Source: Parcubacteria group bacterium
GTDB lineage: Bacteria > Patescibacteriota > Microgenomatia > UBA1400 > PJMF01
DNA: 64,000 nt
Direction: 5' to 3'
Assembly (NCBI GenBank): GCA_943350175.1
Contig: CALQZX010000005.1
Location: 150 to 64,149, forward strand
Shown here: positions 48,496 through 50,704 of the stretch, in pieces
Layout of the letters: the number at the start of each line of letters is the position of its first letter
How positions within the stretch are numbered: the first letter of the stretch is position 1
Translations under genes and position numbers: made by a program
The notes under the pieces: generated by a model
Told to the model about the DNA's origin: nothing
What the model saw: only the letters and a program-made list of their open reading frames with translations
Database searches by the model: none

Positions 48496-48523
48496 AATTA
48501 ATATTAATAGTTGTATTTATACG

Positions 48524-50704
48524 TTGTATCATATAATACAACTATTGAATATGAAAATGGAATACCCATCTAGAAAATCACCTCTCGTTCCAAAGCCGCT
48601 TCTTTCAGTTTTAGAAAAAATTATTATTCCAGAGGAGATTTGTCAAAAGCATGGCATTAAATTTAATAGCAATATTTTAGACATTGCTCAGATCCAATTG
48701 CTGGATTTATCGGCAGATGCCATAGAGGATCTTGGGAGATTTGTTGCAGCATGTGTTGGTGAAAAAAATAGTGAACTTAAGAAAATTAATGGCATGATAT
48801 CTTCAATTTCTTTAAAAGCTAAATTTGTTATGTCTAAAATTAATATTCGTAATAAAAATTCTCTCATGAGATCTGGGTTTAAAGATTCAGATGATTTTTC
48901 TCAAATTCCACTTTCAAGCCTATTTAAAGTTAAGAATCTTGGTCCATTGGGAATATTGGAAATATTTTCAGTTCTATATTTATTTACTGATAAAAACTCT
49001 TATGATAATAAAAATAACGACCTAGTGTTTTCTAAAGCCCTTTCGAATTTAGCTTTAGAGTTATCAAAAAAAGATTGGGCAACGAATGTCTACATAAATG
49101 ATCCAAGAATTGCAGACGATTTAGAATTGCTAGATATGGGATTTGAAAATTTAACTTTAGCTGAGGTTGCTAAAAAAATTGAATCTTCAGCTCATCAAGT
49201 TGAAACAGTGCAATCAAAAAAATATTTACTTAGAAGTTTTATTTTAAAAAATGAACAAAGGTTAAATTTTAATTTAAAACAAGAGGTTGTTGAAATTATT
49301 GAATTCATTGAAACAAACTTTAAGTATAGGCAAATAGTGACTGCCAGGTTGGGATTGGATGGAGAGGATCCTATAACGCTAGAAGAAGTAGGACAAAAAA
49401 TGGGAATTACGCGCGAACGAGTTAGGCAAATTGAGGCAAAAACTATAAAAAAAATTAAAAACTATCTTCCTATTTGGACCCCTGTATTGGACAAAGCAAT
49501 AAAAATAATCTCAAAATATTCCTTAATTCATGAAAATAAACTTCAAATGGTGTTACTTAAAGAGAAAGTTGTCGCAGAAAGGTTTTCAATAAAATCAATT
49601 CAAAAAATAGCAGAAGTTTTTAGTAGAAATATTAGAATTGAATTTGATGCAGAAACAAAGCTAGTTGGTTCTAATGAACTAATTCAATATGTTCCAAAAA
49701 TATTGGGAGTGATTATTAGATTAATTGATCATTGGGGTGCACTAAATATTGATAATGTAGTTTTAAAGTTGGAACAAGATGGGATAAAAGTAAATAGTCA
49801 GCATTTAGTAGAAATACTCGAAATTAATAAAGATATCTGTTGGTTAGACGATGATAAAAAATGGTTTTGGATAAAAACGCGAAATAGTAGGAACAGGGTA
49901 TTAAACTCTATTGAGAAAATAATGTCTGTGGCTGGAGAAATTAATCTTGGAGATTTAAGAAATGGAACAGGTCGCAGCAATAGAATGCATGGCGTTAGAT
50001 TGCCAAGTAAAATTTTGCTTTCTCTTTGTTTGTCGTCAGGCAAATATATTGAGCTAGAAGGTAAAAGGATAGGTGGAATTAATCTACCAGATTGGGGTGA
50101 AACACTAACAGGTGTTGAAAAAACACTTGTTGAAATTTTATTTAGAAATGGATTTGTAATGAAAAGGGAAAAGCTTGAAGAAGCAGCAATATCTTCTGGA
50201 ATAAACAAATCAACATTCTATGTTTATCTGGGTTATTCACCAGTAATTCAAAGATATGCTCATGGAGTCTATGGTTTAAGAGGGGCTTCTATTAATGCAG
50301 CTAAAGTTAAATCTCTAATTCCTCAGCTTATTAGAAAAGGTAAGTCCATTCAGGACTATGGATTTACTGATTCCGGAAATCCATGGATAGGATTTAAAAT
50401 GTCACGCTCCTCCACAGCAAGTGGAGTTTTAGGTTCTCCAAGTTCATTTTCGAGATATATTATCGGTTCATATAAACTCATCACTGAAACAAAAGAAGTA
50501 GTTGGGACACTTGTTGTAAAAAGTAATAATATGTGGGGATTATCTCCATTTTTCAGAACATGGGGAGTTGAAAGCGGTGATTACATAGTTTTGGAATTTA
50601 AAAAAAGTAATGATACTGTATTAGTGACGGCAGGAGATCAAGAATTACTTGGTTGCTATCAGAACAAAGAAGAATTCCAATTTGTAGAGCAAGTGCTTAT
50701 TTAG
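48524..50704 (+). CDS. large hypothetical protein with embedded sigma-70 region-4-like HTH
   Basis: Residues ~283-312, DPITLEEVGQKMGITRERVRQIEAKTIKKIKN, match the sigma70_r4 consensus (TLEEVG…[12 protein letters not shown].KL). The rest is unrecognised. The true start is probably at 48551/48557 (MKMEYP…). Confidence 0.45.
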   Translation: MYHIIQLLNMKMEYPSRKSPLVPKPLLSVLEKIIIPEEICQKHGIKFNSNILDIAQIQLLDLSADAIEDLGRFVAACVGEKNSELKKINGMISSISLKAKFVMSKINIRNKNSLMRSGFKDSDDFSQIPLSSLFKVKNLGPLGILEIFSVLYLFTDKNSYDNKNNDLVFSKALSNLALELSKKDWATNVYINDPRIADDLELLDMGFENLTLAEVAKKIESSAHQVETVQSKKYLLRSFILKNEQRLNFNLKQEVVEIIEFIETNFKYRQIVTARLGLDGEDPITLEEVGQKMGITRERVRQIEAKTIKKIKNYLPIWTPVLDKAIKIISKYSLIHENKLQMVLLKEKVVAERFSIKSIQKIAEVFSRNIRIEFDAETKLVGSNELIQYVPKILGVIIRLIDHWGALNIDNVVLKLEQDGIKVNSQHLVEILEINKDICWLDDDKKWFWIKTRNSRNRVLNSIEKIMSVAGEINLGDLRNGTGRSNRMHGVRLPSKILLSLCLSSGKYIELEGKRIGGINLPDWGETLTGVEKTLVEILFRNGFVMKREKLEEAAISSGINKSTFYVYLGYSPVIQRYAHGVYGLRGASINAAKVKSLIPQLIRKGKSIQDYGFTDSGNPWIGFKMSRSSTASGVLGSPSSFSRYIIGSYKLITETKEVVGTLVVKSNNMWGLSPFFRTWGVESGDYIVLEFKKSNDTVLVTAGDQELLGCYQNKEEFQFVEQVLI

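Follow-up and report, generated by a model that had tools for sequence, protein, structure and literature searches.

The locus analysed here occupies positions 46268 to 50704 of a 64-kb stretch of DNA from a Parcubacteria group bacterium (contig CALQZX010000005.1, positions 150 to 64,149; the whole of this stretch is referred to as the window). It consists of three genes, the products of which we denote components A, B and C: A is a protein of 190 amino acids (aa), B is a GHKL ATPase and C, the protein under study, contains a module corresponding to region 4 of the sigma-70 factors (sigma-4). The genes for A and B are carried on the minus strand and that for C on the plus strand, such that A and C diverge from a short intergenic spacer in which a palindrome is embedded:

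46268..47920, minus strand: gene for component B, a 550-aa GHKL ATPase (Pfam HATPase_c_3, conserved motifs, AlphaFold2 (AF2) model, Foldseek)
47923..48495, minus strand: gene for component A, 190 aa, first in the cassette and without a recognisable family (open reading frame (ORF) list)
48496..48550: divergent A–C intergenic spacer, 55 bp, 16% GC (sequence)
48506..48546: perfect 12-bp inverted repeat, comprising AATAGTTGTATT (48506-48517), a 17-nt loop and AATACAACTATT (48535-48546)
48551..50704, plus strand: gene for component C, a predicted 717-aa multi-module DNA-binding protein (ORF list, N-terminal alignment of relatives, public gene call, AF2 model)

The initial annotation gave C a length of 726 aa, and the corresponding ORF does exist (48524..50704, plus strand, in the ORF list), provided that translation is started at a TTG codon. 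However, an alignment places the N-termini of 14 relatives on the motif M-x-x-x-Y-P-S..L-P-L-x-P, which in C takes the form MKMEYPS and begins at the ATG at 48551, and the public record for the same contig also gives a product of 717 aa; on these grounds, ATG 48551 is almost certainly the true start, and TTG 48524 is probably unused. With the start at this position, the A–C spacer is 55 bp (48496-48550) and not the 28 bp originally assigned to it, and the palindrome is therefore entirely intergenic.

Linkage and distribution of the cassette

The alignment of 46 C sequences offers no stretch conserved enough for a genome scan; two peptide patterns were taken from the GHKL alignment in its place and run against one genome per GTDB species, yielding an independent sample of 78 loci. 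Hidden Markov models for the three families were run on the six-frame ORFs, and, unless another total is given, the counts reported refer to the 41 loci in which the GHKL gene is full-length and is flanked on either side by 3 kb or more. In 39 of the 41, the genes for A and C both adjoin the GHKL gene; for A taken by itself the figure is 40, and all three genes are present in 43 of 45 loci. The initial annotation had suggested that C may be a third component of the GHKL module, an idea that it was prepared to abandon if the two genes proved to be unlinked in other genomes. The linkage held, and the view of C as a fixed third component of the module is strongly supported.

The prevailing arrangement is a co-directional operon in the order 190-aa gene, GHKL gene and sigma-4 protein gene (33/41 loci). 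The divergent arrangement found in the window is seen in 4/41, the C gene lies upstream on the same strand in 2/41, and one or both partner genes are missing from a further 2/41. The loci of close relatives (L001-L007) contain the same trio, namely a gene for 189-190 aa, an HATPase_c_3 gene for 526-550 aa and a C gene, and in Maritimibacter the B and C ORFs overlap. Clustering of the flanking ORFs from 80 loci revealed no fourth conserved gene, whether nuclease, methylase or helicase; the largest flank families (N6-methyltransferase, PIN/VapC toxin, serine recombinase and Dcm methylase) are each confined to five loci or fewer.

An exhaustive profile search recovered 1,574 representatives of the C family (50%-identity clusters) at E<=1e-30, and the best 150 are all full-length, with scores of 480-980 bits. 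The sigma-4/multi-module architecture of C is therefore common, and the rarity that had been claimed for a sigma-4 module within a non-sigma protein was overstated. A word-indexed protein search had pointed to a tiny family of ~20 members, a figure that was overturned by the exhaustive search. The B family comprises at least 1,798 clusters and is far more conserved across phyla, at 50-63% identity, as against 19-41% for C. The groups represented in the scan are the Actinomycetota, Acidobacteriota, Verrucomicrobiota, Planctomycetota, Bacillota, Alpha- and Deltaproteobacteria, Cloacimonadota, Spirochaetes and Dehalococcoidia, together with one Thorarchaeota metagenome-assembled genome (MAG). Two of the carriers are cultured, namely, Maritimibacter alkaliphilus HTCC2654 (locus L050) and Allopontixanthobacter confluentis KCTC 52259. 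Frameshifted or truncated GHKL or C genes are seen in L003, L053, L060, L061, L068, L073, L075 and L081, which suggests that the cassette decays frequently, in the manner of accessory and defence genes.

Domain content of the three proteins

The polypeptide of component C is divided as follows:

aa 1-87: N-terminal region, in which a YP...P motif is conserved
aa 88-148 (48812..48994, plus strand): helix-hairpin-helix module resembling the RNA polymerase alpha subunit's C-terminal domain (alpha-CTD) (Pfam in relatives, hhalign)
aa 149-255: helical region
aa 256-305 (49316..49465, plus strand): sigma-70 region 4, subregions 4.1 and 4.2 (Pfam, PDB matches, conservation profile)
aa 306-592 (49466..50326, plus strand): ~4 putative winged-helix-like domains (AF2 secondary structure, Foldseek)
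aa 593-706 (50327..50668, plus strand): putative B3-like seven-stranded barrel (Foldseek, fold level only)

The helix-turn-helix (HTH) that first drew attention to this protein, DPITLEEVGQKMGITRERVRQIEAKTIKKI at aa 272-301 of the 717-aa C, was correctly identified as belonging to a sigma-70 region 4. Pfam Sigma70_r4 matches aa 260-303 with 48.8 bits against a cutoff of 24.1 (E 4.9e-13), and the same model is matched in 42 of 46 C relatives; moreover, Foldseek aligns C with PDB sigma-4 chains at 38-42% identity (~40%) and a root-mean-square deviation (rmsd) of 1.8-2.5 Å. Both in sequence and in fold, the module matches the solved region 4 of SigA, RpoS and RpoD, i.e. of primary and RpoS-type sigma factors, and it also aligns with the sigma-4 chains of PDB entries 4g8x and 4g94. 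The homology with region 4 of SigA, which again extends to both sequence and fold, is illustrated by the segment RLGLDGEDPITLEEVGQKMGITRERVRQIEAKTIKKI, which aligns with a 37-residue stretch of SigA. Nowhere is the C family more conserved than in the recognition helix, ITRERVRQIE: residues T287-R-E-R-V-R-Q293 are invariant or near-invariant, and R100 and G131, within the alpha-CTD-like module, are invariant. In sigma-70 and alpha-CTD, the equivalent residues make the contacts with the -35 hexamer and with the UP element, respectively.

The alpha-CTD assignment appears firmer at the level of the family than in C alone, where RNA_pol_A_CTD (PF03118) gives only a weak match to aa 99-142 (13.6 bits against a cutoff of 23.8). 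Among the relatives, PF03118 is matched in 17 of 46 (best E 1.7e-7), and hhalign aligns the C-family profile with E. coli alpha-CTD at a probability of 94% (E 1.2e-7). In this alignment, R100, N103 and G131 of C pair with R265, N268 and G296 of the E. coli domain, and the LSxRxxNxL...GxxS/L pattern of the latter is retained.

The remaining modules of C are predicted from its AF2 model, for which 15 relatives served as input and which has a mean predicted local distance difference test (pLDDT) score of 85. Foldseek matches the middle of the protein to the tandem winged-helix proteins UFL1/DDRGK1 (E 2.8e-4) and to Rpc5 tWHD2, and the C-terminal ~110 residues to the B3 domains of VAL1, FUS3, LEC2 and ARF1, all solved with DNA (probability 1.0, target TM-score 0.53-0.56, rmsd 4.4-4.7 Å over ~100 residues, E ~1e-2). 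Neither Pfam nor a PDB sequence search gave a sequence-level match of C to B3/EcoRII-N. The B3 domain shares its pseudobarrel fold with the domains through which EcoRII and BfiI bind DNA; the C-terminus of C is predicted to be alike in fold to this B3/EcoRII-N/BfiI-C group, but it has no nuclease domain attached. In restriction enzymes, the pseudobarrel serves as a DNA-recognition module (PMC2292703).

Searches with Pfam (E<=0.01) found no Sigma70_r2, r3 or r1 in C or in any of its 46 relatives, and the NCBIfam sigma models match C at aa ~235-306 alone, far under their cutoffs. Given that no family member has region 2, 3 or 1, C is not a sigma factor; likewise, it differs from the RNA polymerase alpha subunit in having no alpha N-terminal domain. 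Neither a catalytic motif nor a conserved constellation suggestive of catalysis was seen in C. As modelled, C is a large, non-enzymatic protein that unites, within a single polypeptide and beside unrelated DNA-binding domains, copies of both modules with which RNA polymerase recognises promoters (sigma-4 and alpha-CTD).

Component A gave no significant Pfam, NCBIfam, PADLOC or PDB-sequence match, the best sub-threshold matches being DUF6902 (E 0.018) and PD-T4-1 (E 0.008); 14 close relatives of this protein were found. In the window, its gene ends 2 nt before the start of that for component B, which is a member of Pfam HATPase_c_3 (62.3 bits against a cutoff of 25) with intact Bergerat motifs: E29/N33 of the N-box (ExxxN), D61-NGRGM of the G1 box (DxGxG) and G95-TGKSAAFG of the G2 box (GxxGxG) are invariant or near-invariant. 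In the AF2 model of B (pLDDT 70), the GHKL and middle domains lead into a 68-residue helix (aa 296-363), a disordered linker rich in G/E/D/P (aa 363-448) and a small C-terminal domain of ~100 residues, and the GHKL plus middle region superposes on Hsp90/TRAP1/MORC2 (Foldseek, E ~1e-13). Like MutL and Hsp90, B has its GHKL domain followed by a transducer-like middle domain, then by a long flexible linker and finally by a small domain at the C-terminus, although in B the last of these (~100 aa) matches no known domain, and the MutL, HtpG and topoisomerase models of NCBIfam give only marginal N-terminal matches (15-20 bits). Similarly, the model for the BbrUII/HgiDII restriction enzymes (NF050001) reaches 58.2 bits against a cutoff of 550 over the N-terminal GHKL region alone, and B is not a member of that family. 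No restriction-endonuclease fold, TIR or HxH domain was recognised at the C-terminus of B.

Within that C-terminal domain (aa 449-550; 46268-46720), D/E480-H481-P482-Q483 together with E504, E509 and E517 are invariant or near-invariant, a cluster that could form a metal site, by analogy with the C-terminal endonuclease of MutL. A separate peculiarity concerns the G1 box, the aspartate of which normally contacts adenine in GHKL proteins. In about one-third of the aligned GHKL relatives, it is replaced by glycine (GNGRGM instead of DNGRGM), as in P0303, P0321, P0330, P0350, P0373 and P0374; those that could be traced are from Solirubrobacterales/Actinomycetota MAGs, and the remainder of the protein is still highly conserved.

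The divergent spacer

The inverted repeat reported in the spacer is real, albeit not as an 11-bp repeat around 19 nt: it is a perfect 12-bp repeat with a 17-nt loop. The same spacer has promoter-like elements, with TTGTAT (48511-48516) followed by 15 nt, a perfect TATAAT (48532-48537), 13 nt and the ATG of the C gene; of the palindrome's two arms, the left includes the -35-like hexamer and the right one overlaps the -10. There are three copies of the heptamer GTTGTAT in the spacer, at 48510, at 48523 and, inverted, at 48535-41. When the spacer was shuffled 5000 times, repeats of at least 11 bp arose in 23 shuffles and of at least 12 bp in 7. The window as a whole holds nine distinct inverted repeats of at least 11 bp with loops of up to 40 nt; since repeats of this class are not rare, the one at 48506 is notable mainly by its position. 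Its half-site has 15 matches in the window (up to two mismatches) against 12.8 expected, and is thus not in excess.

None of the other divergent loci has a comparable palindrome. The longest repeats in L001, L004, L005 and L008 are of 5-6 bp and not significant, and the spacer of L010 contains an 8-bp repeat, CTACTATT-GT-AATAGTAG, with the opposite arm order and a different geometry. Across 67 loci, no operator or inverted repeat is conserved upstream of the cassette, and no motif is shared by the upstream regions of the co-directional operons. The divergent spacers do have in common TTGyAw-N15-(T/G)ATAwT, a promoter-like sequence directed into the C gene, the layout TTGyAw-N15-TATAwT-N13-ATG also being present in L001, L003 and L005; additionally, the closest loci share the string TAyAwTACwACTATTGAAT-ATG. 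The 12-bp palindrome is locus-specific and lies outside the conserved cassette. As it overlaps the crossing divergent promoters, it may act as a local operator here.

The island also encodes an XRE-type HTH protein (78 aa; 45965-46201, plus strand), the gene for which is convergent with the GHKL gene and absent from the other cassette loci examined. On either side of the start of this gene lie the arms of a separate 8-bp inverted repeat, GTCGACCA (45947-54) and TGGTCGAC (45984-91), which is unrelated to the palindrome at 48506. The XRE-type protein was considered as the owner of that palindrome, but no link between the two was found: the repeat at its own start is a different one, and the frequency of the 48506 half-site elsewhere is at chance level.

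Genomic context, related systems and possible function

The region from 43 to 51 kb looks like a small integrated island that carries the GHKL cassette as cargo. The cassette island is ~8.6 kb in size, and the fraction of GC drops from ~0.40 to 0.30-0.35 between ~43 and 51 kb. The following features were located at its margins:

42763-42838, plus strand: tRNA-Asp, island edge (ARAGORN, Rfam)
42781-44472, minus strand: large serine recombinase gene (Pfam Resolvase and Recombinase)
51398: tRNA-Gly (ARAGORN/Rfam)

The 3' end of the recombinase ORF extends 58 nt into the tRNA-Asp gene, and Rfam detects the two tRNAs and nothing else in 42-52 kb. An att-type direct repeat of the 3' end of tRNA-Asp was sought on the opposite side of the island, where only a 9-nt match, GAATCCGAT, and an imperfect inverted repeat were found; no long direct repeat marks the right boundary there. 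Serine recombinases also adjoin the cassette in L001, L003 and L005. Elsewhere, its neighbours include type II and IIG methyltransferases, PIN/AbrB toxin–antitoxin pairs, Mrr_N, MADS, DpdF and an IS110 transposase. Searches of PLSDB plasmids, INPHARED phages, IMG/VR and BFVD found no relatives of the cassette, the only matches being those of sigma-4 to phage sigma factors. The overall picture fits an accessory, horizontally mobile conflict cassette.

The nearest analogue of the cassette is the MzaA/MzaB pair of MZA (MzaABCDE), a validated five-gene anti-phage system in which MzaD is a nuclease (bioRxiv 10.1101/2022.06.16.496414). In both cases, a large protein bearing sigma-4 (MzaA in MZA) is encoded beside a GHKL ATPase of the HATPase_c_3 type (MzaB). 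The NCBIfam MzaA model (NF041931) aligns with aa 210-303 of C over model positions 611-702 of 726 (E 4.9e-16; 58.7 bits against a cutoff of 800), and the PADLOC MzaA model (PDLC02203) with aa 258-305 over positions 611-658 of 683, i.e. with a 48-residue HTH piece; for B, the NCBIfam MzaB model scores 19.1 bits against a cutoff of 850. Whereas sigma-4 is at the extreme C-terminus of MzaA, it is central in C and is followed by the predicted winged helices and B3-like barrel. Furthermore, MZA has five genes, including the nuclease gene, and the present cassette has three and no recognised nuclease. Judged by these comparisons, the cassette shares with MZA the idea of a sigma-4 protein paired with a GHKL ATPase, and is not a member of that system.

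A second parallel is provided by the MORC/paraMORC GHKL ATPases, which sit in restriction-type operons and for which ATP-driven DNA looping has been proposed; some MORC operons also encode a separate VP1/RAV (B3) domain protein (PMC2292703). Component B resembles these proteins in its GHKL and predicted middle domains and in its patchy, mobile distribution. Superfamily-II helicases, nucleases and methylases are typical of their operons but are not conserved around the present cassette, and the paper in question (PMC2292703) describes neither a sigma-4/alpha-CTD partner nor the 190-aa protein, the word 'sigma' being absent from it. The CapK/CapS (PMC13373217) and HEF_HK/Response_reg_2 (PMC8011034) pairs are different GHKL pairs. 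The cassette is absent from the names in Pfam and NCBIfam, and searches of the literature covering the gene pair, MzaA, paraMORC and the idea of a decoy found no paper that describes it.

With moderate confidence, we propose that C is the DNA-recognition or adaptor subunit of a self-contained, mobile A–B–C cassette with a role in defence, in which B is positioned by C. In this scheme, C would bind DNA, plausibly a promoter-like sequence that is A/T-rich and contains TTGnnn, or else an extended DNA structure. In complex with B, it would position or gate the dimeric GHKL clamp, which would then use ATP to trap, loop or remodel the DNA bound by C. Such a mechanism would follow the proposals made for the MORC/paraMORC restriction-type operons, and would parallel MzaA plus MzaB. 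Defence against phages or other mobile DNA is the most likely role, because the cassette lies in a serine-recombinase island at tRNA-Asp and is patchily distributed. Several observations weigh against this proposal, however. Neither A nor B nor C has a recognised nuclease, toxin or other effector domain; no PADLOC v2 system model was matched by any of the three beyond the MzaA HTH piece and weak GHKL hits; in other genomes, housekeeping genes such as those for LepA, PEPCK, catalase and tRNA synthetases account for many of the immediate neighbours; and the winged-helix and B3-like assignments derive from a single AF2 model, with Foldseek E-values of 1e-2 to 3e-4.

The initial annotation had envisaged C as a dedicated regulator or sensor of the GHKL operon, autoregulating through the palindrome as a shared divergent operator. 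Features of the window are in keeping with this: the palindrome is unusual for such a spacer (7-23 of 5000 shuffles) and covers both the -35-like hexamer and the -10, its arms include TTGTAT, a hexamer in principle readable by a sigma-4 helix, and C has several HTH-type modules; in addition, the divergent spacers of Actinomycetota show two inverted TTGC(G/A)A hexamers. The idea fares poorly once other genomes are considered, as there can be no shared divergent operator in most loci, where C is the last gene of a co-directional operon (33/41, with 4/41 divergent), and the palindrome is missing from the other divergent loci L001, L004, L005 and L008, has a counterpart of different geometry in L010 and has a half-site not above chance elsewhere in the window. 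Moreover, in solved complexes sigma-4 is a monomer on an asymmetric hexamer, so it is not an obvious binder of a 12-bp palindrome, and a protein of 717 aa with about seven nucleic-acid-binding modules, kept across phyla, goes far beyond the needs of a repressor. We therefore regard autoregulation of this kind as unlikely, and conclude that C is not a simple local regulator dependent on the palindrome. The designation of C as a real, if aberrant, alternative sigma factor is highly improbable. It has precedent in the databases, in that one RefSeq/UniProt record gives the C homologue of Maritimibacter the name 'RNA polymerase sigma factor' (the Maritimibacter proteins being otherwise 'hypothetical protein' in RefSeq) and the analogous MzaA is an 'MZA anti-phage system associated sigma-70 family RNA polymerase sigma factor' in NCBIfam, and region 4 is indeed complete in C. 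However, region 2, which a sigma factor needs for core binding and -10 recognition, is lacking from all 46 relatives, as are regions 3 and 1, and the sigma-4 module is in mid-protein with 400 residues of other domains after it.

Two further alternatives concern what the promoter-recognition modules are for. RNA polymerase is attacked by phages both through anti-sigma-4 factors of the AsiA/gp67 type and through ADP-ribosyltransferases that act on R265 of alpha-CTD, and C combines exactly the two modules known as phage targets. It might therefore be a decoy or guard, in which sigma-4 and alpha-CTD bait phage take-over proteins, the capture or modification of the bait activating the GHKL ATPase. 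The primary-sigma-like 4.2 helix TRERVRQIE is nearly unchanged while the remainder of C is at 19-41% identity, the residue equivalent to R265 is invariant, and the absence of sigma region 2 means that C could not act as a sigma factor itself. The same residues would equally contact DNA, so their conservation does not discriminate, and the five further modules of DNA-binding type (the winged helices and the B3-like barrel) favour DNA as the ligand; on balance, the decoy idea seems quite unlikely. A broader formulation, also doubtful, is that C displays both promoter-recognition modules as an immune sensor of a new kind, be it as decoys for phage factors or as readers of strong foreign promoters, and so licenses the MutL/MORC-like GHKL clamp to shut down the DNA of the invader with no need of a classical nuclease. 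Alternatively, the cassette may not be immune at all, but a chromosomal DNA-transaction or chromatin-type module (MutL/MORC-like compaction, repair or promoter silencing) that is only incidentally mobile. This would account for the housekeeping neighbours, the failure to find an effector nuclease or toxin and the absence from the plasmid, phage and IMG/VR collections, and the architecture of B does resemble MutL, Hsp90 and MORC, which act in repair, folding and silencing. It is improbable in view of the patchy occurrence across distant phyla with GHKL proteins that are 50-60% identical, the small serine-recombinase islands at a tRNA gene, the restriction–modification, toxin–antitoxin, MADS and Dpd neighbours in several genomes, and the pseudogenised copies, all of which are typical of accessory conflict genes.

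Should C indeed be the DNA-recognition subunit of a defence cassette, then A–B–C would be a widespread three-gene system, spanning >12 phyla and >1,500 sequence clusters, the proteins of which are presently annotated merely as 'hypothetical protein' or, misleadingly, as 'RNA polymerase sigma factor'. It would be a candidate new defence system, and the cultured carriers permit direct testing. It would also offer a compact bacterial model for the targeting of a GHKL/MORC ATPase to DNA, with C reusing the promoter-reading parts of RNA polymerase; in eukaryotic MORC silencing, DNA targeting is still an open question. For annotation, the lesson is that a strong Sigma70_r4 match is not by itself sufficient to name a protein a sigma factor.

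Some minor observations were made on the surroundings of the cassette. In several Verrucomicrobiota and Acidobacteriota loci (L012, L015, L023, L024, L036 and L052), a PIN/VapC toxin gene ends directly upstream of the A gene, and in some loci it is preceded by a gene for an AbrB/SpoVT-type antitoxin. The Maritimibacter cassette (L050) adjoins a small ATPase-like ORF of 341 aa, which by eye is anti-sigma/GHKL-like (motifs IRNTVEHS and DAGIGI), and it also lies beside ORFs that, again by eye alone, resemble phage terminase/packaging genes (coordinates for these observations, 3817-4842 and 10332-11940). Finally, in the ORF-free DNA upstream of the recombinase gene in the window, there is a 19-nt imperfect inverted repeat (44787-44828) with a perfect 11-bp core, AATTGATCTAA...TTAGATCAATT, which may be a site for the recombinase or for a regulator.

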